From sequence record PZ445535.1: a stretch of 44,793 nucleotides of DNA. One strand, written 5' to 3'. Shown here piece by piece: positions 5,218-40,723 of the stretch. The notes below the pieces were generated by a model. The model worked only from the letters and a program-made list of their open reading frames with translations, searched no databases and was not told the origin of the DNA. This DNA is from a phage. Positions within the stretch are counted from its first letter, which is position 1; every line of letters begins with the position of its first letter. The translations under genes and the position numbers were made by a program.

Positions 5218-5247
5218 CGTCATTTCCTCATTGGTTGGTGTGCAACC

Positions 5248-10171: not shown

Positions 10172-10534
10172 ATGGCTAAACAATCCCTGTTCACCCTCGA
10201 CCCAAAACCGACCTTCAAGCTGCCGATTGAAATCCCGCGTCCGGGTGAGAAAGAGCCGGGTAAGCTGACTTTCACAGTCCGCCACCGCCCGATCGACGAG
10301 TTTTCGCAGACCATGCAGGAGACTGAGCGCAAGCTATCAGAATATGACCAGAATGACCCGGATGGCTTTAACGTTATGGTCGAGGCCATCATGCACGTCG
10401 CTGAAGGCTGGAATCTGCCGGATGAGTTCACCGAAGAGAACGTCCGCCGCCTGGTGGTGAACTACCCGCGTGCGTTCGGCGTGTTCCATACGTCGTACTA
10501 TCTAGAATTGATGGGCTTGCGTGAAAAAAACTAA
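10172..10534 (+). CDS. tail assembly chaperone (G-like, unshifted product)
   Basis: 120 aa ending ...LREKN; acidic; immediately upstream of tape measure region; slippery heptamer at its 3' end. Confidence 0.75.
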   Translation: MAKQSLFTLDPKPTFKLPIEIPRPGEKEPGKLTFTVRHRPIDEFSQTMQETERKLSEYDQNDPDGFNVMVEAIMHVAEGWNLPDEFTEENVRRLVVNYPRAFGVFHTSYYLELMGLREKN

Positions 10535-10848
10535 TTGCGGCGGCGCGACGATTTTATGGTCCGCCGCCACCGTCCGAAGACCTTGCCGCTAGTTTATGGG
10601 GTGCGGCCCCCGAAGATATTTGCCCGCCAGTTGCATTATGGCCTGATAACGTCCAGGTCGTTGCCGTTTTCACGGACTGCTCGACGCAGTGGCGCACCGG
10701 TTTTAATGGTGCATACGGCATCGACTATGGCGTACTGGAATGGTTGTTTAAAATGCACGGCATCGAAAACGAGAAGCGCGCTTTTAAAGATATTAAGCTA
10801 ATGGAGCGTATCGCACTCGACGAAATCGCAGCACAACAGGCCGGGTAA
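10172..10848 (+). CDS. tail assembly chaperone frameshift fusion (GT-like), programmed -1 frameshift at 10525-10531
   Basis: A_AAA_AAC heptamer in zero frame 5 codons before the stop; -1 frame stays open to TAA at 10846-10848 and encodes ...KKLIAAARRFYGPPPPSEDLAASLWGAAPEDICPPVALWPDNVQVVAVF...; intrinsic terminator follows. Confidence 0.7.
10525..10531 (+). other. -1 programmed ribosomal frameshift slippery heptamer A_AAA_AAC
   Basis: Heptamer in zero frame of chaperone gene; -1 frame open for 105 further codons. Confidence 0.7.
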
Positions 10849-10862
10849 TTCCGGCCTTTTTC
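10839..10862 (+). terminator. intrinsic terminator after chaperone frameshift ORF
   Basis: GGCCGG-GTAATT-CCGGCC hairpin followed by TTTTT; overlaps stop codon of -1 frame product. Confidence 0.6.
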
Positions 10863-11190
10863 GTATCGGGACAAGCGGGACGTCCCGTTTTTGTCCCACC
10901 CATCCCGCCACACCGAAAACTGCATACCTATTCAGAAATACTGCATAAAACCAAAACGGGACAAAAACGGGACAAGCGGGACGTCCCGCCTCAAAAGTGC
11001 ATACCTATGCAATTTTCGTGCATAAAACAAACGGGACAAAAACGGGACAGATTCCGCGCGGGACAAAGCGGGACGTCCCGCCGTCCCAGTCAGTGCTGCC
11101 GCGGGTTTCAGCCGTTCGGGACAAGCGGGACAAAGCCCAGTCTTTCAGACTAGACGGGGGTCAATGGCCCCCCTCGTCTGAGACTGAATA
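10863..11190. repeat. iteron-rich element A (about 11 CGGGACA heptamers, three GGGACGTCCC palindromes, two ~78-bp tandem units, terminal G/C-rich inverted repeat)
   Basis: Non-coding 400-bp gap inside tail operon; heptamer CGGGACA at 10867, 10957, 10968, 11032, 11043, 11059, 11117, 11126 etc.; inverted repeat CAGTCTTTCAGACTAGACGGGGG...CCCCCCTCGTCTGAGACTG at 11138-11186. Confidence 0.8.
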
Positions 11191-11256
11191 AGGTTGGTTG
11201 CAAAATGACTGATACAATACAAACGGCAACTTGCATAAAAAGGGGGGGACTGCATA

Positions 11257-13899
11257 ATGGCAGATCAAGCCGCAGGCATTACGCTAAAGGCGGACGTGTC
11301 GCAAATTAAATCGGCGAACAATGCGCTAGACCAAATGGCGCAAAAATCCGATAACACCGAAAAGAAAGTTAAGAAGCTAAACGACACCCTCGGCAACAAT
11401 AAGAAGGAGTCGTCCGGCGCTGCGGATGGAATGGGTAAGTTTGCACAGCAGACTGAACGAGCCGCAGATGGCATGACCAAACAGGAACGTTTGGCAAACC
11501 GGTTAGGCATGTCAACCAAAAACCTCGGCTTCGCATCACGCAACGCTGCATTCCAGCTTCAGGACATTGCCGTAACGCTTGAGATGGGTATGCCAGTGCA
11601 CCGTGTCATGCTTCAGCAGTTACCGCAGCTTACCGGTGCGTTTGGCGGTATGGCTAACACCTTGCGTTATGTTGCAGGCGTACTCGGTCCAGTAGGGATC
11701 GGCCTCGCGGCATTAACGGCAACGCTTGGCGTAGGTGTGGCTATGACCACGCGTGCCGATAACCAGGTTGCGGCGCTAAACAAGACGCTCACTCTTTCAG
11801 GTAACATTTCCGGCCTGACAGCTAACCGTATCCTGGAGCTTGCCGAGAACGCCGAGCGCATGGGAGGGACGTTCCGCAAGACTAAGGACACCATTCAGGC
11901 GCTGGCAGCGGCGGGTGTGCGCGCAGGGTCTGACTTCGGCGCACTTGCTAAGGTCGTTAATGATTTCGCCAGTGTATCAAGCGAGCCAATCGAAGACGTC
12001 GTTTCGGCGGTAGCCAAACTGTCAACGGACCCTGTAGGCGGCTTGCGCGCATTGGCGGACCAGTACCATGTCGTTACGGAAGCGCAGATCCAGCAGGTGC
12101 AATCGCTCATGGACGCGGGTAAAGAGACTGAAGCAGTTGCGGCGGCTAACAAGATCGCAACCGCATCATTCTCGGATATGACCACCGAGCTTAAAGCGAA
12201 CATGGGTACGCTTGAGCGCTCAATGAAAACGGTCACATCAGCAGCGAAGTCTATGTGGGATGCTATTCTGGATATTGGTCGGGCACAGTCGTCTAACGAA
12301 GCTGAGATGGAAGCCCGCGAGAAATTGCAGCGACTGACCACCGCCTACTACGTTGAGCAGAAAGCGGTTGCTGAGGCTGGCGGCAAGATGACCGAGGCAC
12401 AGAAGGCCCGGATCGATATGCTGTATAGCGAGATGGTAGCCCAGGAGAAGGTAGTTGCCTCCGCCACGCTGGCTAACCGCCAGAAGCGCGAAGAAGCACA
12501 GACCGCCGAGCAATCGGCTAAAGCACGGCAGCAGGAAAACCAGGCGGCCCGTGAACTGGCGGAGCTTGATGCTAAATACGCCACCAACGCCGAGAAGCGT
12601 GCGAAAGAACTGGCGAAGGTAGACCGCTTGCTGAAGTCCGGCACGATTTCGCAGGAGCGCCACGCCGAGCTTGTCGAGCAGATTAACAAGATGTACAAAG
12701 ACCCGGCACCGAAGAAGGCCGCTGCCGTTCGGGTAGACTCCGGCCTGAAAATGCTTGAGATCGCAAAGAGCGAACTGGCGCAACTTCGCGAGGCTGGAAA
12801 GTTAATCACCGCCAATGCTTCAAACCAGACACGCACACAGCGCGCACAAGCGGCCCTGAGCAAGCTAATTGCCGATAATGAGCAGTTAGTCGCTGCGAGC
12901 AAGTCCAGAGCGCTGACGGCAGCGGAGAAGCAGCAATTAGCCGAGTTTGAGAACGTACGCGCGGTGCGAGAGCAAATCGTCGCGGAAGCGAAGCGCCAGG
13001 ATGAGGTCGAGAAGTCCGTAAAAGCGCACGCGCAGATCGACGCCTACCTGAAGAATCAGGACGCCGAACTGAAAGCCATTACGGCAGGCTACGCCTTATC
13101 GACCCGCGAAGCGTCTAACCTGCGGGAAGAGATGCAGCTAATTGACAGACTGAAGCGCGTCGGTGCTTCCGACACAGATATTGACCGTGCTGTTTCAAAG
13201 CTGCGCGAAGTGCAGGAGGCGCAAACCGGCGCTAACGCGTCGTTGTGGGATGGCTTCAGCCGCGGCCTGAAAGATAGCGTGGATGACCTGGGTAACGGAT
13301 ATACGCAGATGGTATCCGCGACAAAATTCACGTTCGGCGCTATGATGGATACGATGAACGAGTTTTTCGAGACTGGTAAATTCAACGCGAGGGATATGAT
13401 TAAATCCATCCTGAGCGAATTTATCAAGCTGGCTACCTCGCAAGCGTTTAAGTCCGTTGTTACCGCGTTCGGCGGTGGTGGAAAAGACGGACTGTTTGGG
13501 GCGATCTTCTCCGGCCTCACTAAGAACGCCGACGGCGGAGCGTACTCCGGCGGCAACCTTTCCGCGTATTCCGGGCAAGTGGTGAGCCAGCCTACCTTTT
13601 TCAATTACGGCGTTAAGGCGTTCGCTAAGGGCGCAGGATTGATGGGCGAGGCCGGGCCAGAGGCCATCATGCCACTGAAGCGCGGGCCGGACGGTAAGCT
13701 GGGCGTTGCCGCAAGTGGCGCGGGCGGAGGCGGCATCGTTGTGACCACTAACGTCAACATGGGTACGGGGCAGGCCGACACCAGCGTTAAAGGTACCGAC
13801 CCACGAATGGGCCAGGTATTTGGCAAGCAGATCACGGAAGCGGTTAAAGCCGAAATCGTGAAAGCAACTAAACCAGGTGGTGTACTTTATAAACGATGA
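11257..13899 (+). CDS. tape measure protein
   Basis: 880 aa; long alpha-helical Ala/Gln/Lys-rich sequence; Gly-rich C-terminal region; RBS AGGGGGGG; followed by M/L/K/I/J-like genes. Confidence 0.9.
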   Translation: MADQAAGITLKADVSQIKSANNALDQMAQKSDNTEKKVKKLNDTLGNNKKESSGAADGMGKFAQQTERAADGMTKQERLANRLGMSTKNLGFASRNAAFQLQDIAVTLEMGMPVHRVMLQQLPQLTGAFGGMANTLRYVAGVLGPVGIGLAALTATLGVGVAMTTRADNQVAALNKTLTLSGNISGLTANRILELAENAERMGGTFRKTKDTIQALAAAGVRAGSDFGALAKVVNDFASVSSEPIEDVVSAVAKLSTDPVGGLRALADQYHVVTEAQIQQVQSLMDAGKETEAVAAANKIATASFSDMTTELKANMGTLERSMKTVTSAAKSMWDAILDIGRAQSSNEAEMEAREKLQRLTTAYYVEQKAVAEAGGKMTEAQKARIDMLYSEMVAQEKVVASATLANRQKREEAQTAEQSAKARQQENQAARELAELDAKYATNAEKRAKELAKVDRLLKSGTISQERHAELVEQINKMYKDPAPKKAAAVRVDSGLKMLEIAKSELAQLREAGKLITANASNQTRTQRAQAALSKLIADNEQLVAASKSRALTAAEKQQLAEFENVRAVREQIVAEAKRQDEVEKSVKAHAQIDAYLKNQDAELKAITAGYALSTREASNLREEMQLIDRLKRVGASDTDIDRAVSKLREVQEAQTGANASLWDGFSRGLKDSVDDLGNGYTQMVSATKFTFGAMMDTMNEFFETGKFNARDMIKSILSEFIKLATSQAFKSVVTAFGGGGKDGLFGAIFSGLTKNADGGAYSGGNLSAYSGQVVSQPTFFNYGVKAFAKGAGLMGEAGPEAIMPLKRGPDGKLGVAASGAGGGGIVVTTNVNMGTGQADTSVKGTDPRMGQVFGKQITEAVKAEIVKATKPGGVLYKR

Positions 13900-21415: not shown

Positions 21416-23329
21416 ATGGCAGCGGGTATACTTAACGTAACAAACAATAGCAAGGCCGTAACGGGGTCGGGCACGACGTTTACGTCATTGAAAGCAGGCG
21501 ACTTTTTATCGCTGGTGGTGGGGCAAGTCCCATACACCGTAGCGATCGAATCAATCCAGAGTAACACGGCGCTTACGCTGGTGCTGCCGTTTGACGGTCC
21601 GACGTCTACCGGTCTGGCCTGGTCGTCGGTTGACCGCGATACTATGTCACTGGCTACTATGGGCGTAACCGTGCAGGCGCAGAAAGCGCTACGTCTTATG
21701 ATCGCGGACGAAAATAACTGGCGTGCAATCTTCGGTGACGCAGAGCAAATCAGCGTTACACTACCCAACGGCACCGTAATGCAAGGTATGTCGTGGGGCT
21801 ACTTGTCCAGTCTGCTTAATGACGTAGACCCCGTTGAAATGCGCAACCTGCAACAGCAGGCTGAGACTGCTAAAAACCAGGCGGTAACCGCGAAGGGGCA
21901 AGCAGAATCGGCACGCGATGCTGCTAACACCGCGAAGACTGGGGCGGAGAATGCCCGCAACCAGGCTAACAATGCTAAAACCGACGCGCAGACGGCAAAA
22001 AGGCAGGCCGAAGCCGCTCGCGATGCTGCTGTCACTGCGAAGACTGGGGCGGAGAATGCCCGCAACCAGGCGCAAGGCTACCGAGATGAGGCGGAAGGTT
22101 TTAAAAACCAGATTAACCCTGCACTATTCGTGCAGAAGTCGCAAAACCTTAATGACGTTGCCGATAAAGCAGAGGCGCGCGCTAACTTGCAAGTTTTCTT
22201 TGCATCAAACTCTAACCTGGGAACTACAGACCTCAATACGCTCGACAGCACGAAGGAAGGGCGTTATTACCAGACCACCTCGGTGAACGCGACACCCGAG
22301 CGTAACTACCCGTTTCAGGAAGCCGGTTGTCTTACCGTGTTTAAAACGGGAGGGGGTAGTGTGGAGGCTTGCATCCAGGAGTACACCACGTTTTCAAGCC
22401 TGCGTCGGTTCGTCCGTTCGCTCGCTGGGGCGGTATGGACGGCGTGGAAGGAGATCTACCTGCAAGGGTCGTCCCCGACATACGAAAATATCGACTCGAC
22501 AGGACGAGTTAGATCTGAAAAGGCATATCCAGCATTCGAGTGGGTGTCGACGAGAGTAGCCGACGATTTCATCGGTAAGCGAGTCAGCATTGAGAACGAC
22601 ACAGGCGTTAATATGAATATGTTCTTCATGCAGAAAGACACAACCGCAAACAGACGTGTCGTAGCGTTCGCAAGGCCAAACTCTACTGTTTTCCACTTCG
22701 TAGGGTATAACGGCGGGCTACCTACAGACGGCAACAGCGCCCCGTCGAATAACATTAACTTTAACACGCAACCGCAAGGATGGCGTATGGTGTCCGGCGG
22801 CTGGCAAAATGCACCGCTCGATGGGAACAACTACGGGACTTTATTCACGCAGTGTGTGCAAGGTGTGTCGCAGGGGGATTCGAAAGACAACGGTACATCT
22901 GGCTTGTGGTATTCACAGCGATATGTTAATACCGATTCTAGGGTGTTCATCCGAAATCAAACAAACAACGCAGCCTGGGGCAGGTGGTATGAATTTACTA
23001 AAACGGCAGTCTCGGATGAACGCCTGAAGAATGTAAAAGGGGATTTGAATGTTGAAGGTGCGCTCGATAACATCAACCGCATGGAATTTAAAATATTCTC
23101 GTTTAAGGATGAGAAGGCTGGGAAGGGGTATCGTCGCGGTGTTATCTCGCAGCAGATTCGCCAGATCGATAAAGAGTACACGAAGGAGATCGGCGGGTAC
23201 TATCACCTCGACCAGACACCAATGCTACTGGATGCCCTCGCGGCAATTAAGGCGTTGCGTGCGCGTGACGAGGCTAATAAAGCAGAGATTGCAGAACTGA
23301 AAGCAGCGATCGCTGAATTGAAGAAATAA
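21416..23329 (+). CDS. lateral tail fiber with C-terminal intramolecular chaperone (S74-like) domain
   Basis: 637 aa; Ala/Asn/Gln-rich coiled-coil repeats; C-terminal SDERLKN...coiled-coil tail typical of self-cleaving fiber chaperone domains; RBS AAGGAG; bidirectional terminator downstream. Confidence 0.75.
   Translation: MAAGILNVTNNSKAVTGSGTTFTSLKAGDFLSLVVGQVPYTVAIESIQSNTALTLVLPFDGPTSTGLAWSSVDRDTMSLATMGVTVQAQKALRLMIADENNWRAIFGDAEQISVTLPNGTVMQGMSWGYLSSLLNDVDPVEMRNLQQQAETAKNQAVTAKGQAESARDAANTAKTGAENARNQANNAKTDAQTAKRQAEAARDAAVTAKTGAENARNQAQGYRDEAEGFKNQINPALFVQKSQNLNDVADKAEARANLQVFFASNSNLGTTDLNTLDSTKEGRYYQTTSVNATPERNYPFQEAGCLTVFKTGGGSVEACIQEYTTFSSLRRFVRSLAGAVWTAWKEIYLQGSSPTYENIDSTGRVRSEKAYPAFEWVSTRVADDFIGKRVSIENDTGVNMNMFFMQKDTTANRRVVAFARPNSTVFHFVGYNGGLPTDGNSAPSNNINFNTQPQGWRMVSGGWQNAPLDGNNYGTLFTQCVQGVSQGDSKDNGTSGLWYSQRYVNTDSRVFIRNQTNNAAWGRWYEFTKTAVSDERLKNVKGDLNVEGALDNINRMEFKIFSFKDEKAGKGYRRGVISQQIRQIDKEYTKEIGGYYHLDQTPMLLDALAAIKALRARDEANKAEIAELKAAIAELKK
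21911..22071 (+). repeat. 105-bp in-frame tandem duplication inside tail fiber gene
   Basis: 56-nt blocks at 21911-21966 and 22016-22071 nearly identical (AGACTGGGGCGGAGAATGCCCGCAACCAGGC); encode repeated ARDAA-TAKTGAENARNQA. Confidence 0.7.
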
Positions 23330-32422: not shown

Positions 32423-33193
32423 TTAACGGCGGCGACGTTTACGTGGCGCTTCGTCGTCGTCCTCATCTTCGTCATCGCGTGGTTTACGACGTTTGCGAGG
32501 TTTTTCGTCTTCGTCTTCGTCGTCGTCATCGCGGCGCTTGGACTTTTTGGACTTACGCGGCTTGTCGTCATCGTCATCACGACGTTTTGACTTTTTGGAC
32601 TTACGCGGGCTTTCATCTTCGTCATCGTCGCCCAGGTCTTCGTCGGAACATGAAGACCCGCCACCGCCGAAGGCTTCGCCGTCATCACGGAAGCGCATAC
32701 CCAGCAGACCACAGCCTAAGCCTTTGCCGTTGGTATTGTTCCAGGCCCAAATATCTAAGGAAACGTTGCAATAGCAACCGGAATAGATTTCCTTCCCTTC
32801 GATTTCGTCGCCGTCGATGGTCAGACCCTGCTCCGTCTGCTTCTCGCCTTCGGAAGTCTGGATGATCGGCTGTTTGAATGATTTGGCATTGATGTACAGC
32901 TTTCCTTCAAACTCTTCCGTCACTTCTTCACGCTCGTCACCATCACGAACTGCACATTCTTTCGAATCCTGTGCGTAGTGGCGGTCCATCCACTTATCGG
33001 CGTTCTTTTCAGACTTCAGCTTTTCGGTGAGCACTGCGCGTGCCGCCGCTTCCACTTTGTCCACCTGCGGATCTTCTTTATCAAGAATAATCACCGCACG
33101 AAATGCCGGTTTTTGTCCATCCTGTTTAGGGGTATCACGCTCCCAAATTTTCAGGAAGCATACACGTACATTTTTCAGGTTGACTTTAGCCAT
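32423..33193 (-). CDS. ssDNA-binding-like protein with charged repeat tail
   Basis: 256 aa from ATG 33193 (MAKVNLKNVRVCF...); RBS GAGGAA 7 nt upstream; C-terminus built from 16-aa DDDDDKPRKSKKSKRR repeats; SSB assignment is from N-terminal pattern and context only. Confidence 0.45.
   Translation of the reverse strand: MAKVNLKNVRVCFLKIWERDTPKQDGQKPAFRAVIILDKEDPQVDKVEAAARAVLTEKLKSEKNADKWMDRHYAQDSKECAVRDGDEREEVTEEFEGKLYINAKSFKQPIIQTSEGEKQTEQGLTIDGDEIEGKEIYSGCYCNVSLDIWAWNNTNGKGLGCGLLGMRFRDDGEAFGGGGSSCSDEDLGDDDEDESPRKSKKSKRRDDDDDKPRKSKKSKRRDDDDEDEDEKPRKRRKPRDDEDEDDDEAPRKRRRR
32537..32609 (-). repeat. 48-bp tandem repeat in SSB-like gene tail
   Basis: GACTTTTTGGACTTACGCGG at 32541-32560 and 32589-32608 (forward strand); encodes two DDDDDKPRKSKKSKRR units. 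Confidence 0.7.
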
Positions 33194-35553: not shown

Positions 35554-36060
35554 TTAGTCTTCCAGTTCGAAATAGGTTTCGACAATTTCTTTCAGTTCGG
35601 TGTGGAAGTCTTCAACGTCGTCATCTTCCAGCTTAGCCACAGTCTTGATTTCGAACGATTCCAGCAGGTCGTCAAATTCGTCGTTCGCGTCGTCATCGTC
35701 GCCGCCTGCAATGATCGCCGCGTATTGTGCAATTTCATCGCGCATTTCTTTCAGCGGGTCGGCGTCTTTCTTAGCCTTGCCTTTGCCCTTGCCTTTGGCT
35801 GGCTTTTCTTCCGGTTCGTCTTCGTCGTCGTCATCTTCTACGACTTCTTTTTTCGCCTTGCCCTTAGCCGTGGACTTCTTAGCAGGCTTCTTATCTTCCT
35901 GCTCTTCATCTTCGTCTTTGGCTTCTTCTTCTTTCTTAGCCTTAGACGGTTTCTTATCTTCCTGCTTACCAACGGCAGCGCCATGAGTTTCGTAATGTTT
36001 AGCGATGGTTTCCAGTGCTACTACGCCGCGAGTAATCAGATTCAGGATTTGCTCAAACAT
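35554..36060 (-). CDS. highly acidic / Lys-rich low-complexity protein (first early gene)
   Basis: 168 aa from ATG 36060; RBS GGAGA 6 nt upstream; about 45% D/E plus K-rich blocks; first ORF downstream of TTGACA...TATTAT promoter. Confidence 0.55.
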   Translation of the reverse strand: MFEQILNLITRGVVALETIAKHYETHGAAVGKQEDKKPSKAKKEEEAKDEDEEQEDKKPAKKSTAKGKAKKEVVEDDDDEDEPEEKPAKGKGKGKAKKDADPLKEMRDEIAQYAAIIAGGDDDDANDEFDDLLESFEIKTVAKLEDDDVEDFHTELKEIVETYFELED

Positions 36061-36313: not shown

Positions 36314-36643
36314 ATGAATATCAACGAAGCAATTGAAGTGTTATCTAATGCAATCCGCGGCGAGTCTGGTAAATCCTGGTATTACACAAATGCGGTGGAT
36401 ACTCTGTTATTTGAAGTGTCCAGATTATCGCGTGCCGAGAAAGAGCTTACCGCCAAACTTGAATTGCTGAACGGTACGGCAGCGAGCAAGCTGCAAAAGC
36501 ATAACGAAGAAATGGAAGAATACAAAAAGCAGGTTATCAGACTGCGCGAAGAGGGTAAGTCCTGGGCGATGATTGCCGAGTTAACAGGCATTAACCAGAG
36601 CACGGTGCGATCCTGGGTACGCAATACTAAAACCGCTAAGTAA
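36314..36643 (+). CDS. helix-turn-helix DNA-binding protein (putative regulator)
   Basis: 109 aa; C-terminal HTH-like SWAMIAELTGINQSTVRSWV; RBS AGGAGG; first gene of divergent plus-strand operon. Confidence 0.55.
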   Translation: MNINEAIEVLSNAIRGESGKSWYYTNAVDTLLFEVSRLSRAEKELTAKLELLNGTAASKLQKHNEEMEEYKKQVIRLREEGKSWAMIAELTGINQSTVRSWVRNTKTAK

Positions 36644-36652
36644 GGGATTGAG

Positions 36653-38920
36653 ATGATGAGAAATATAGAATTTGCGATCACACCTCCCGCAAAGAAAGGT
36701 GAATCAGCGGTAGCCCATAACCAATCCATGACTACCGCCGAGTTTTTCGAGTTTATGCTGGATGCGCCGGTGGTGTCGTCAGTTTGCATTAACGGCACTG
36801 AAGATAAGAAAGAATACGCCCGTCGTAAGCGTAAAGGCGACGGTATTGTGGCGACCACCGCCGACGGTACGCGTAAGAAGACCGGCGTTGTTGACCGTTC
36901 GATCCTGTTCTTTGACCTGGACCGCGCCGACAACCGCACACTTACCCGCTGCCGTAGGGCTTTTCGCAAGTCCGGGCTGGAGTATGTCTATCACACCACC
37001 ACCGGCGACCGCCACCCGTTGAAAGACGGCAAACGTTGCGCCCGTTTCCTTGTGCTGACAAACAAACCAGTTCCGGCTGAAGACCTGGGCCGCGCGCAGG
37101 CTGCACTGCTCGAACAACTGGGCCTTACAGACGCGGGCTTTGATGACTGTTCGAAAGACACAAACCGTCTTATGTACTTGCCACACCAGCAGGCTAAGGT
37201 CGAATGCCATGAAGGTAAACGCGCTAACGTGCGTCGTCTGCTTCGCCGGGCTGACCGGATGGGTATTGAGCAGGAGACGTTTCGCCGTGAACTGGCGCAG
37301 GGCGACGACGAGCAGATGAACGGAATCCTCGACTGGTGTTTCCAGGCTGGCTTTGAGCCGTTGCCATCCGGGCGCGGTTATGAAGTGCCGTGCCCGAACG
37401 AACATCTGCACTCTGGCGAAGGGTCAACCGCTATCATGCTTAAGGATGGCGAGATCCGTTTCAAATGTATGCACACCGGCAACGGTTGCTGTTCGGAACT
37501 GAACAAACACCAGCACCTGGCGCTACGCATGATTGGCATCCCGGATATTTATAACGTGGAACCGCACAACATGTCACGCAAACAGATCTCGGCTATCCTG
37601 CCAGGTCTGGACGATGAAGAAGTGGACGCGCAGTATGAGCACATGGTCGATCTGGTAGGTGAGGGTGAGGATTATGCTTCCTGTACCGACGCAGACCTGG
37701 AAGACGAACCGACGGCGCTGTTCTCTAAGCACGACCCGATCATCGAAGGTCTGATTAACTTCAAATCGACCTGGTACGCAGCGGGCGAGTCGAACATTGG
37801 TAAGTCCTTCTTTGTCCTGGGTCAGATGGCTGCCGTTGCCGCTGGCATTCCGTTCGGCGGCGCGAAGGTCGTCCAGTCACATTGCTTCTATTTCGATGCG
37901 GAAGGTGGCGAGGCGTCACACCAGCGTAAAGAGGCACTGCAGATTAAATATGAGCACGACCTGGATAAGCTGCACATTATCGACCTTCAGGCCCGCGGCT
38001 GGGATATTACGAGCAAATCCGGCCTGCGTGAAGTCATCAGCTTTATCAACCGCACCGCGGATGGTGAACCGGTCGGCCTGGTGGCATTCGACTCCCTTAA
38101 CCAGACAGTGGCCCTGCGATCTGCTGACGCCAAACCGTTCGATGAGAACAACGCAAGCGATATGGGTGAGATTGTCAAAGCGCTGAAGGCCATTGCGGAA
38201 AACACAGGCGGCAGTGCGGGCGTCATCCACCACCCGGCTAAGGGTGCAAACGGCAGCAGATCCCCGCGGGGGTCCGGTGCGCTACATGGCGCGGTGGATT
38301 CTGCATTCTTCCTGGAACAGCCAGACGAGAATCAGCCGGGCCAGCTAAACCTGTACCACGAAAAAGCACGTAACGGCGTCAAACAGGGTCCGCGCGGCTT
38401 CGTGCTACTGAAGTGCAAAGTATCCATTAACGAGCGCAAGTCTGACTCGTTCGAAGCGCACCAGTCCACTAACCCCGGACCGGACTTCGGCGATGTAGTT
38501 GCCGGATGGGACGTCAAGCCAATCCAGGCCACGCCGCGCGACGAGACTCTGTACCTCGTACCGGTAGCGCTGACCCCGTTCGCTATTGAACAGGCTAAGG
38601 CGGCAGGCAAGCAGGCTGTTAAGGATGAGAACACCGCAGGCCCGCGCAATGAAAAAGAGAAAGTGCTGTACGCAGCGCTCGAAGCGTTGATGGAAGAGAA
38701 TCCGGGCCACCACGGCTTCAGCAAATCGGCAATCGTCCGCAAAGCTGGGCTGGCGAAAGGCGGCACTTCGACGAAGCCAATCGACGATATGCGCGAGCGC
38801 GGAATCATCGGCTTTTACAAAGACCCGGACACCGGGGCCATTTACGGGTCGTCGAATCTGGTTATCAATTCACAAATATCTATGCAATTGACGGCGACGG
38901 ACGACGACCTTAAAGATTAA
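36653..38920 (+). CDS. DNA primase-helicase (AEP-like N-terminal domain, zinc motif, RecA-fold ATPase)
   Basis: 755 aa; N-terminal FFDLDRAD / HTTTGDRHPL acidic motifs; Cys/His cluster CPNEHLH...CMHTGNGCC; Walker A AGESNIGKS and Walker B LVAFDSL. Confidence 0.65.
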   Translation: MMRNIEFAITPPAKKGESAVAHNQSMTTAEFFEFMLDAPVVSSVCINGTEDKKEYARRKRKGDGIVATTADGTRKKTGVVDRSILFFDLDRADNRTLTRCRRAFRKSGLEYVYHTTTGDRHPLKDGKRCARFLVLTNKPVPAEDLGRAQAALLEQLGLTDAGFDDCSKDTNRLMYLPHQQAKVECHEGKRANVRRLLRRADRMGIEQETFRRELAQGDDEQMNGILDWCFQAGFEPLPSGRGYEVPCPNEHLHSGEGSTAIMLKDGEIRFKCMHTGNGCCSELNKHQHLALRMIGIPDIYNVEPHNMSRKQISAILPGLDDEEVDAQYEHMVDLVGEGEDYASCTDADLEDEPTALFSKHDPIIEGLINFKSTWYAAGESNIGKSFFVLGQMAAVAAGIPFGGAKVVQSHCFYFDAEGGEASHQRKEALQIKYEHDLDKLHIIDLQARGWDITSKSGLREVISFINRTADGEPVGLVAFDSLNQTVALRSADAKPFDENNASDMGEIVKALKAIAENTGGSAGVIHHPAKGANGSRSPRGSGALHGAVDSAFFLEQPDENQPGQLNLYHEKARNGVKQGPRGFVLLKCKVSINERKSDSFEAHQSTNPGPDFGDVVAGWDVKPIQATPRDETLYLVPVALTPFAIEQAKAAGKQAVKDENTAGPRNEKEKVLYAALEALMEENPGHHGFSKSAIVRKAGLAKGGTSTKPIDDMRERGIIGFYKDPDTGAIYGSSNLVINSQISMQLTATDDDLKD

Positions 38921-39030
38921 AATTTGCGCGCATTGGTTGCCGATATGGGAATTCCCATATCGCTAAAAGATTAAATTCTGCGCGCATTGGTTGCCAGATT
39001 GAGCATTAAATCTATATCGCATTGGTTGCC
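38912..39030. repeat. three direct repeats containing GCGCATTGGTTGCC plus perfect 22-bp palindrome
   Basis: 30-bp repeats at 38912-38941 and 38966-38995 (54-bp period), partial third at 39018-39030; palindrome CGATATGGGAATTCCCATATCG at 38941-38962. Confidence 0.75.
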
Positions 39031-39068
39031 GTGTAGTGCTAAATAAGTGAATAGTTATGCAAAATAAG

Positions 39069-39240
39069 TGCATAAAACAAACGGGACAAAAACGGGACAA
39101 ACTACAAGCGGGACAAAACGGGACGTCCCGCCGTCCCCGTCAGGCGTGGTGCGGATTTGAGGCGAACGGGACAAGCGGGACAGACCACAGTCTTTCAGAC
39201 TAGACGGGGGGTATTGTCCCCCCTCCGTCTGAGACTGCAT
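39069..39240. repeat. iteron-rich element B (second copy of element A core)
   Basis: 32-mer GTGCATAAAACAAACGGGACAAAAACGGGACA identical to 11018-11049; GGGACGTCCCGCCGTCCC; CGGGACAAGCGGGACA; G6/C6 inverted repeat at 39188-39237. Confidence 0.8.
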
Positions 39241-39396
39241 AAAATCTCTGGTTGCATAATCAACGGCAGCATAGTGAAAATTGCGGCGGGGGTAGATCTC
39301 GGCAACCAATGCATGTTGGATAATGGAGAGTGAAAAATGCAGTTTGCAATTGCAACTCATAGCGATCAGCATTTCCATGCGCGTGATTGATATTGG

Positions 39397-39425
39397 TTGC
39401 ATTCAGCCTGGCACCTTGCTATATT
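39397..39425 (+). promoter_or_regulatory. sigma70-like promoter (TTGCAT-N17-TATATT) for early genes at 39454+
   Basis: attggTTGCATtcagcctggcaccttgcTATATTggttgcacaccaac; shares a 20-nt block with the promoter at 5248-5276. Confidence 0.5.
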
Positions 39426-39453
39426 GGTTGCACACCAACATGAGGACTGAACG

Positions 39454-39759
39454 ATGAGAGCATTAATCTGGAGTTACACATCAGCGGTCGCAGCGCTCTA
39501 TGAAGCGAAGCACACAAACGGCAACGCCGACCACGCACGCCAGGCTGTCATGTTCGCGCAGCAGGCAATCTTTGCAGCGTTCGACAACATGGACGCCAGC
39601 CTGGATGAACTGGAACCATTGCGTGTGGCAATCTGCGAGTATGCGATGAAATTCGCCCGTGAGCGTCTTGCTTACCGGTTTGGCATCGGCGAAACGGCGA
39701 CGGCTAACATCGCCCGCATTCAGGCCCAGCGTGAGCTACACGCCTTACTTGCGAAATAA
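39454..39759 (+). CDS. hypothetical early protein
   Basis: 101 aa; RBS GAGGA; first gene after promoter TTGCAT-N17-TATATT. Confidence 0.5.
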   Translation: MRALIWSYTSAVAALYEAKHTNGNADHARQAVMFAQQAIFAAFDNMDASLDELEPLRVAICEYAMKFARERLAYRFGIGETATANIARIQAQRELHALLAK

Positions 39760-40169: not shown

Positions 40170-40723
40170 AATTACTATTCCGCCGTAAGCATGACGGTCG
40201 CATCTTGAAGCTGATCCAGACCCTGGATTCCTACGTCCACTTGCGCCACGCGGCAAGCGATAGAGTATTCCGCGCGCAGAAGACCACGTTGCCGCAGTTC
40301 TTCGAAGTCCTCTCTCATGATATTGAGCGCGGCGATGTGCTGCGGGATATTCGCGATGGGCAATTGTGGGTCGTGGAGTGTGCGGGATTTAATAACCTTC
40401 GTATACAGACACGCATGGGTGGCGTATCGGGCAACATGATTAGGGGAATGACGTACTTCGGGCTAATCCACTACGAGCGCGTGGGGCGTAACTATAAACT
40501 TAAGCGCCCTGGTGTAGTGGCGAAAGAGATCACCCGTACGGAACACCCATATACCAAATACGACGAGCGCAAGGTGCGCGAGCATATCGACAACGCCAGA
40601 GCACAGGCTGCCGCTATGATTCGGGCTGGCAACGATGCCAAACGATTTGGGATTGGTGTTCTTCTGGTCTACCCCGACGGCAGCATGAAGTCTACCGATC
40701 CGCGCGGGGTCATTCTGAAATGA
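40166..40723 (+). CDS. hypothetical early protein
   Basis: 185 aa; RBS GAGGAG 8 nt upstream. Confidence 0.5.
   Translation: MKLLFRRKHDGRILKLIQTLDSYVHLRHAASDRVFRAQKTTLPQFFEVLSHDIERGDVLRDIRDGQLWVVECAGFNNLRIQTRMGGVSGNMIRGMTYFGLIHYERVGRNYKLKRPGVVAKEITRTEHPYTKYDERKVREHIDNARAQAAAMIRAGNDAKRFGIGVLLVYPDGSMKSTDPRGVILK

Follow-up and report, generated by a model that had tools for sequence, protein, structure and literature searches.

In the Bacillus phage SPP1, oriL lies within the initiator gene and oriR within non-coding DNA that splits the late structural genes and has transcription signals on either side (PMC6316719, PMC5737612), and the second site has been proposed to be a protein-bound fork barrier that triggers the switch from theta to sigma replication (PMC6316719, PMC5737612, PMC3485210). 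In P4, the alpha protein joins a primase and a helicase to a C-terminal winged-helix domain in one polypeptide, and this domain binds the short repeats of the origin (PMC2777425, PMC4234260). Replication of RSF1010 involves iterons, then unwinding by RepA and then the hairpin sites ssiA and ssiB, which act as single-stranded priming signals once the DNA has been unwound and are primed by RepB' (PMC4234260, PMC8567376). In pRN1, which encodes ORF904, and in the Bordetella phage BIP-1, a stem-loop origin sits 3' of the gene for a primase-helicase-winged-helix protein (PMC4234260, PMC2777425, PMC8567376), and replication of pRN1 depends on the conserved stem-loop (PMC4234260). Here we analyze a segment that occurs twice, 28 kb apart, in the 44,793-nucleotide phage sequence PZ445535.1 (this whole stretch is called the window below) and that is probably the cis-acting core of an iteron-type replication origin.

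The window is the whole genome of a Dhillonvirus (an HK578/SO-1-like siphophage, ~44.8 kb), numbered from the large terminase gene. Self-BLAST of the whole genome and an ungapped repeat comparison delimit the duplicated segment to positions 10995–11206 (copy A) and 39045–39260 (copy B), both on the plus strand and in direct orientation. The copies align with 81.9% identity over 216 columns with 2 gaps (E=3e-54), and an ungapped alignment of 10995–11175 with 39045–39225 spans 181 nt at 83% identity. According to the self-BLAST, the pair is the longest dispersed repeat of the genome; the one other self-match of comparable size is a tandem repeat within the tail-fibre gene (21416–23329), which holds a 105-bp tandem duplication at 21857–22066 with 80% identity.

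A sequence-only reading of the window had reported a duplication of about 170 bp, which our alignments confirm and extend beyond the interval first given. Every string quoted in that reading was found at both loci: an identical 32-mer GTGCATAAAACAAACGGGACAAAAACGGGACA (11018–11049 and 39068–39099), whose start had been placed one position off, the GGGACGTCCCGCCGTCCC block (11070–11087 and 39120–39137), CGGGACAAGCGGGACA (11117–11132 and 39167–39182) and a G/C-clamped inverted repeat (11138–11186 and 39188–39237). At least 100 matching positions had been counted, and the alignment yields about 177, not short chance matches. Inversion by homologous exchange between the copies, which had also been envisaged, is excluded by their direct-repeat orientation, since exchange would give a 28-kb and a 16.7-kb circle (a deletion) or gene conversion.

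Read 5' to 3' on the plus strand, the module consists of an AT-rich TGCATA-repeat unit, four CGGGAC(A) sites, a spacer of ~29 nt, two CGGGACA sites and a hairpin, the fourth CGGGAC(A) site forming one half of an inverted pair GGGACGTCCC...GTCCC. The iteron array of copy B (39082–39182, plus strand) comprises six CGGGAC sites at 39082, 39093, 39109, 39119, 39167 and 39176, with an inverted partner at 39125 (the GGGACGTCCC palindrome) and GTCCC at 39133. The array of copy A (11032–11132, plus strand) has its CGGGAC sites at 11032, 11043, 11059, 11069, 11117 and 11126, with an inverted partner at 11075 and GTCCC at 11083. Neighboring iterons are mostly 9–11 bp apart, approximately one helical turn, and a 16-bp gap and a 48-bp spacer divide them into groups. 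As in iteron-type origins, the sites are several and short, lie mostly in one orientation and follow a near-helical spacing.

Region A, the non-coding interval 10849–11256 that contains copy A, holds ~2.5 module copies and 11 CGGGAC sites, compared with six in B. About 1.5 additional sub-modules precede the duplicated segment there: these extra iteron groups (10867–10990, plus strand) comprise CGGGACAAGCGGGACGTCCCGTTTTTGTCCC at 10867–10897 and a first full sub-module at 10916–10990, made of an AT-rich TGCATA unit, three iterons and a palindrome. Self-BLAST matches 10916–10974 to both 10993–11049 and 39045–39100. The window hence contains two dispersed regions of like organization, which present their parts in the same order and share a common repeat.

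CGGGACA is exclusive to these regions on the plus strand, where all 13 copies lie in the two loci (~3.5 would be expected per strand in a 44.8-kb genome), and the single minus-strand copy lies outside them. Likewise, all five genome copies of TGCATAAAA fall in the two loci. The AT-rich segment of copy B (GTGAATAGTTATGCAAAATAAGTGCATAAAAC, 39039–39081) is a candidate DNA-unwinding element, as its predicted duplex stability places it within the 4–6 least stable 30–40-bp intervals of the genome (top 0.02–0.05%). The hairpins, which could also form cruciforms, share the general form CAGTCTTTCAGACTAGACGGGGG-loop-CCCCCCTCGTCTGAGACTG with an 18-bp, G/C-clamped stem. That of B is CAGTCTTTCAGACTAGACGGGGGG-TATTGT-CCCCCCTCCGTCTGAGACTG (39188–39237; DNA fold −14.7 kcal/mol, z=−4.6) and that of A occupies 11138–11186 (−13.4 kcal/mol, z=−4.1). 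Folded as single-stranded DNA, they reach −13.4 to −14.8 kcal/mol on either strand (z −4.1 to −4.6), and none of 200 shuffles was as stable. A reading of GTGAATAGTTATGCA as a DnaA box or IHF site, judged by eye, was rejected as too weak (7–8 of 9 matches at best).

All 159 Dhillonvirus records that BLAST matched in the phage collection contain both copies; nearly all of these records are titled as Escherichia or Shigella Dhillonvirus, and a single copy occurs only in two partial records. The best matches of both loci are phages Ioannina and LM40P1 (90–94% identity). Records named for other hosts, MG065648 (Campylobacter phage A144), one from Acinetobacter and OQ291023 (Salmonella phage Kenya-K19), carry both elements at ~80% identity, which suggests possible host mis-assignment or contamination. 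The loci orthologous to copies A and B are known from annotation in Sodalis phage SO-1 (GenBank GQ502199, 2009), as the repeat_region features 'region A' (11214–11597) and 'region B' (40178–40657); the record describes direct, inverted and palindromic repeats and the mutual similarity of the two regions. The duplication itself is therefore already on record, and the element, which had been regarded as unusual, is not peculiar to this phage but Dhillonvirus-wide. Our literature search found no comparative analysis of it, the SO-1 annotation alone being on record.

We aligned the 14 module copies of seven complete Dhillonvirus genomes over 227 columns. The number, order and orientation of the iterons are kept in all seven (6 in B, 8–11 in A) while the spacers diverge, and the 107 invariant columns fall mainly in the iterons and hairpin stems. 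The stems, bulges included, are identical in the 14 copies and the loop alone varies. A copies cluster together (82–98% identity), as do B copies (72–97%), yet within a lineage derived states are common to A and B. Iterons 1 and 2 are spaced by 11 in both copies of the clade of this phage and Ioannina and by 12 in both copies elsewhere; the inverted pair agrees between A and B in each lineage, being GGGACGTCCC in both or GGGACAGCACCCCTGTCCC in both; and the hairpin loops of A and B are identical in JL1 and in EP23. Between clades, 8–14 columns co-vary in A and B versus 1–2 that anti-vary, a difference traceable to few events. These shared states indicate that A and B evolve in concert, through conversion, co-selection or both. 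The spacer between iterons 4 and 5 (11088–11116, CAGTGCTGCCGCGGGTTTCAGCCGAT) is constant in all A copies and variable in B, and is an A-specific element.

Copy B begins 125 nt past the stop codon of a 755-residue primase-helicase gene (36653–38920, plus strand; phrog_3228 'replicative helicase-primase', E=0; Pfam AAA_25, 4.5e-21), in agreement with the earlier description of an iteron-like array adjoining a primase gene. The AAA_25 (RepA-like) helicase core covers residues 356–532, and neither the N-terminal 340 nor the C-terminal 126 residues matched a Pfam or NCBIfam family. A PDB sequence search with the primase-helicase returned one weak match, RSF1010 RepA (1G8Y, E=0.5). The C-terminus is the part of the protein that diverges most between genera (15–30% identity versus 45–82% for the helicase core), and within Dhillonvirus it is 80–85% conserved, paralleling the iterons. 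An acidic tail (38900–38917; DDDLKD, DLED or DDLEN) is kept in all genera despite the divergence of the preceding domain, and the phage also encodes a gp2.5-like single-stranded DNA-binding protein and a Pol I-type polymerase. T7 gp4 and gp2.5 have polymerase-binding acidic tails of a similar kind.

The same architecture recurs, with other iterons, at related helicase genes. The Edwardsiella phage eiAU-183 (Eiauvirus), whose primase-helicase is 43% identical and whose synteny is kept, has large non-coding gaps at both equivalent positions, with a common 40–52-nt element of 88–90% identity. Its iteron is CGCCCCG, half of the plus-strand copies of which lie in the two gaps that make up <5% of the genome, and the site before the tape-measure gene retains a recognizably related hairpin, GAGGAGACGGGGG..CCCCTCGTCCTC. 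In the Salmonella phage SenTO17 (primase-helicase 44% identical), AT-rich DNA containing GAATAGTTATGCA, which is common to the AT-rich segment of B and the equivalent place in SenTO17, is followed by direct and inverted GGGGGAGA iterons and then by a hairpin. All five GGGGGAGA copies of the SenTO17 genome lie at this post-helicase site, and there is no iteron site ahead of its tape-measure gene. Because SenTO17 has only the post-helicase site, the gene-linked copy B looks ancestral and copy A appears to be a later duplication. Judged from annotation alone, Kagunavirus and Jerseyvirus have no comparable non-coding gap after the helicase gene.

IMG/VR was scanned with the pattern CGGGACAN{2,5}CGGGACA, which returned 120 loci with 53 clusters of at least 4 sites. 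An AAA_25 helicase-core homologue is encoded in 19 of these loci, and a CGGGAC cluster lies at its 3' end in 16, between −224 and +108 nt of the end of the gene (chance ~4% per locus). Thirteen of these 16 helicases are only 25–30% identical or BLAST-undetectable, several are fusions of Prim-Pol with AAA_25, and the downstream genes vary. In many of the loci an iteron, a G+C hairpin and an inverted iteron form a unit, and a relative with 68% identity retains both CGGGAC and the hairpin. Rhizobium phage 16-3 has a like layout after p101 (NC_011103, 56250–56600), including an iteron-hairpin-inverted-iteron unit, with the iteron CGTGACA, one base from CGGGACA; p101, a DNA polymerase/primase, is 59% identical to one of the CGGGAC-associated IMG/VR helicases. 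Linkage to the putative initiator gene and co-variation with it, both expected of an iteron-type origin, are thus observed. Very dense arrays occur in addition on contigs L019 (6124–6365; 24 CGGGAC sites with a 22-bp period) and L075 (4563–4858 and 5707–6063; 21 and 13 sites), where no adjoining helicase homologue was detected.

Our interpretation is that a phage-encoded, lineage-specific DNA-binding protein would oligomerize on the CGGGAC(A) iterons, that the neighboring AT-rich DNA would melt and the RepA-like helicase load, and that the hairpin, extruded in single-stranded DNA, would be a priming or assembly signal. Copy B is likely to be the origin beside the initiator-helicase gene and copy A a second origin or a second initiator-binding site, the role of B as primary origin being more secure than any specific role of A. 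The combination of iterons, an AT-rich segment and a hairpin, the exclusivity of the motif, the tight and recurrent linkage to helicase genes and the lineage-specific iterons together fit the expectation for an origin with its initiator; the anatomy, exclusivity, linkage and co-variation are all seen directly in the sequence. Binding of one protein to both sites would oblige A and B to stay alike, which would explain their concerted evolution. Protein binding, unwinding, priming and the contribution of copy A are what we infer.

The leading candidate for the iteron binder is the winged-helix-like C-terminal domain of the primase-helicase; the top Foldseek matches of its structure model are all winged-helix (WH) domains (MarR, Fur, ORC2 WH; E 0.02–0.2). 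The C-terminal domain of the distant CGGGAC-associated helicases also models as winged-helix-like, with a predicted local distance difference test (pLDDT) score of 74. An exhaustive search of 1.84 billion representatives found 10 homologues of the C-terminal 166 residues (38420–38917 of the window), and a word-indexed search returned one fragment. The alternative candidate is a 109-residue helix-turn-helix (HTH) protein encoded directly upstream of the primase-helicase gene (36314–36643, plus strand; Pfam Sigma70_r4_2 4e-7 and HTH_23 1e-6; phrog_9366), for which a PDB sequence search was uninformative. The metagenomic protein P0007 (1346 residues) contains eight repeated stretches that match residues 102–146 of the 166-residue query, corresponding to the wing region of the putative winged helix.

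Several observations weigh against an origin at these loci, or against parts of the proposed mechanism. The C-terminal model (residues ~665–735, H-b-H-H-b-b) is of low confidence (pLDDT 58.6), a weakness that follows from the shallow alignment afforded by only 10 homologues, and a profile-profile comparison found the C-terminal domains of the Dhillonvirus and distant CGGGAC-associated helicases unrelated (hhalign probability 1.6%). The HTH protein shows no similarity to the small proteins encoded at the same position in eiAU and SenTO17; because it differs between genera, it co-varies with the iterons equally well, and the two candidate binders are not told apart. The AT-rich units of A are less extreme than that of B (top 0.7–2.7% least stable). 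The hairpin stems never vary and hence provide no covariation evidence for the structure. The cumulative GC/AT skew has its minimum at ~36 kb, not at 39.1 or 11.0 kb, and tracks gene orientation, so that it cannot locate an origin. Both copies adjoin transcription signals. Finally, our literature search found no Dhillonvirus study of replication initiation, protein binding or unwinding, and no functional study of the SO-1 regions, the CGGGACA motif or the phage 16-3 origin.

As for the genomic setting, the head, tail, lysis and terminase genes occupy the plus strand and a replication block at 23.3–36.2 kb the minus strand, followed by the plus-strand pair formed by the HTH gene and the primase-helicase gene. 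Region A is a 408-bp non-coding gap between the frame of the tail assembly chaperone (Phage_TAC_4, 10172–10534, with an extension to 10848) and the tape-measure gene, which starts at 11257. Upstream, it is bracketed by an intrinsic terminator with a stem and a T-run at the end of the chaperone frame (10838–10862, plus strand), the equivalent of which is annotated in WFI and HK578. Downstream, the bracket is an extended −10-like promoter element read from the sequence, TGATACAAT (11210–11218, plus strand), which lies 39 nt ahead of the tape-measure ATG, is kept as CTGATACAAT in 7 of 7 genomes and was not called by a simple promoter scan. The consensus of the extended −10 element is TGnTATAAT.

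These signals bear on a purely transcriptional account, which has a small but appreciable chance of being right. The CGGGAC arrays would then be operator or activator sites that switch or insulate the downstream plus-strand units, namely the tape-measure and tail genes and the block of small genes, lysis and terminase, under a regulator such as the sigma-70-region-4-like HTH protein, and the hairpin would be an atypical terminator or an RNA-processing site. Such control would suit the position of both copies, in the same orientation and, as the sequence-only reading had correctly pointed out, directly ahead of long plus-strand gene blocks; the flanking of region A by a terminator and a conserved extended −10-like element; and the proximity of a gene for an HTH protein with sigma region 4 similarity. 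However, the simple promoter scan called no sigma-70-type promoter in region A or B, and ATTGGTTGCA, not CGGGAC, brackets promoter-like sequences genome-wide. An array of 6–11 sites across 100–270 bp, in both orientations, is also atypical of a promoter operator. The hairpins are not canonical Rho-independent terminators, since no T-run follows them (AATAAGG follows A and CATAAAA follows B) and the terminator scan lists neither. In other phages the iterons keep to the helicase gene that precedes them: they sit at its 3' end, in many cases overlapping the coding end, whatever comes next. Because the same iterons recur at helicase-gene 3' ends in unrelated phages with differing downstream genes, a purely transcriptional role fits worse, and of the shared regulatory or replication function that had been suggested for the two copies, it is replication that the comparisons back best.

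Other roles at the level of DNA, which we consider very unlikely, would make the copies terminase sites (pac or cos-accessory), partition or condensation sites, or selfish or neutral repeats under gene conversion that matter mainly as recombination substrates. Centromere-like and terminase-binding sites, too, typically consist of phased arrays of short repeats, the direct repeats A and B do exchange sequence, and one CGGGAC cluster from IMG/VR (contig L022) lies near a terminase gene. Against this, neither copy is near the terminase genes of the window (TerL at 1–1386, TerS at the end of the genome record), the strong recurrent linkage is to helicase genes, in 16 of 19 loci, and the strict conservation of iteron number and position across 159 genomes, together with the recurrence of two sites in another genus whose iteron differs, points to selection rather than neutrality. 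The chance is slimmer still that the element acts as RNA, that is, as a nut/put-like antitermination signal, a protein sponge that repeats GGA/GGGAC motifs or a stabilizing or processing hairpin. Two same-strand copies within long transcription units, a strong hairpin and core iterons that all lie on one strand would be in keeping with this, and nutL/nutR and putL/putR are a parallel for paired same-strand copies. But inverted copies, perfect palindromes and, in the relatives, arrays in both orientations that reach inside coding 3' ends form a pattern that is usual for sites in duplex DNA; the hairpin has the same stability on either strand, its stems lack compensatory changes, no promoter was called ahead of either copy, and a scan of the whole genome with Rfam 15 gave no match at gathering score. 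In summary, the linkage across phages, the mixed orientations and the lack of called promoters and Rfam matches make these explanations fit less well than an iteron-type origin present twice.

Within the origin interpretation, more specific roles can be proposed which, taken jointly, we regard as unlikely. Copy A might be a programmed fork barrier, a recombination site or an element coupling replication and transcription in the tail operon; by analogy with the proposal for SPP1 oriR, initiator-bound copy A would switch theta to concatemeric replication. Alternatively, copy A might form a loop with B, or determine the dosage of the tape-measure and tail-tip genes and their timing. The same joint estimate covers the idea that CGnGACA iterons with a hairpin 3' of AAA_25 helicase-winged-helix genes mark a widespread, undescribed class of phage replicon that extends from coliphages to 16-3.

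Further features surround the two loci. Three 33-nt repeats AAAGATTAAAnTnTGCGCGCATTGGTTGCC (38909–39030, plus strand), each containing a TGCGCGCA palindrome and a separate ATTGGTTGC motif, begin in the last primase-helicase codons and occur upstream of copy B only; they are kept in other Dhillonviruses. Open reading frames run over the repeats on the minus strand at 39055–39402, where Ioannina, EP23, JL1 and other records have a hypothetical protein annotated, and on the plus strand at 10997–11191. Neither has a Pfam or PHROG match, their frames are not conserved and 1-nt indels separate genomes in the region; both are likely annotation artefacts. A second motif, ATTGGTTGCA, is separate from CGGGAC (22 copies in the TTGGTTGC form) and is mostly paired in intergenic or divergent regions, at 5242/5256(−), 21372/21389(−), 24562/24574(+), 26473/26490(−), 33249/33265(+), 38933/38987/39022(+), 39393/39424(+), 39957(−) and 42688(−). 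The pair at 39393–39432 brackets a sigma-70-like promoter, TTGCAT (39397–39402)-17 nt-TATATT (39420–39425), just upstream of the gene at 39454, and the same motif is abundant in eiAU-183 as TGCAACCAAC. ATTGGTTGCA probably marks early promoters or operators in this group of phages. The plus-strand GTC/ATC-rich runs at 32433–32638 and 35596–35931 correspond to Asp/Glu-rich tracts of minus-strand replication-region proteins.

Dhillonviruses are common E. coli phages, present in the BASEL collection, among therapy candidates and in defence-system studies. Knowing where an origin probably lies gives replication assays and marker-frequency analysis a definite place to look, and is of use in engineering, where it bears on the position of minimal replicons and safe insertion sites. 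An origin would also explain why the tail operon has a conserved 400-bp gap, in which annotation pipelines place spurious open reading frames. One architecture that employs CGGGACA, CGTGACA, CGCCCCG or GGGGGAGA as its iteron provides a natural system for the study of initiator-iteron specificity, as well as a sequence signature for predicting origins beside AAA_25/Prim-Pol helicase genes in metagenomic phages. The CGnGACA-iteron origins at AAA_25 helicase genes possibly form a wider family that is as yet undescribed.

PDB and Pfam comparisons detected no similarity of the primase-helicase to the P4 alpha origin-binding domain, to SF3 helicases or to SPP1 gp38. As there is no protein-level homology to the SPP1, P4, RSF1010 or pRN1 systems, our claim is that the locus would work like them, not that it belongs to their families. 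A close parallel in layout is SPP1, a lytic Bacillus siphophage of ~44 kb that likewise has two dispersed sites of similar organization, with direct repeats accompanied by an AT-rich unwinding element. Binding and origin function have been demonstrated in SPP1, whereas here the sites are known from sequence alone. SPP1 further differs in using a separate initiator (gp38), loader (gp39) and DnaB-type helicase (gp40) in place of a fused primase-helicase, in having AB boxes as repeats and no conserved G/C-clamped hairpin, and in placing oriL inside a gene and not 3' of it.

P4 has its octamer iterons in two cis regions that lie apart, ori and crr, and alpha binds each of them. Their distance is a few kb, compared with 28 kb here, and the iteron sequences differ; moreover, P4 alpha combines a DnaG/Toprim-type primase with an SF3 helicase, whereas the Dhillonvirus protein has an AAA_25 core and an N-terminal domain without a Pfam family. 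The oriV of the IncQ plasmid RSF1010 resembles the module in its iterons, AT-rich region and conserved hairpins, and in its RepA-family helicase. However, RSF1010 uses three separate proteins (RepC, RepA and RepB'), two opposed ssi hairpins and 20-bp iterons, in contrast to the single fused protein and the one near-palindromic hairpin per module found here, at which priming is presumed. With pRN1 and BIP-1, the locus shares a cis site directly downstream of, or overlapping the end of, a multifunctional replication gene, and the SaPI and N15 origins are likewise positioned at the rep gene's 3' end or within it. pRN1 has an SF3 helicase and no iterons, whereas the Dhillonvirus locus combines iterons with a stem-loop and repeats the whole in a second copy.

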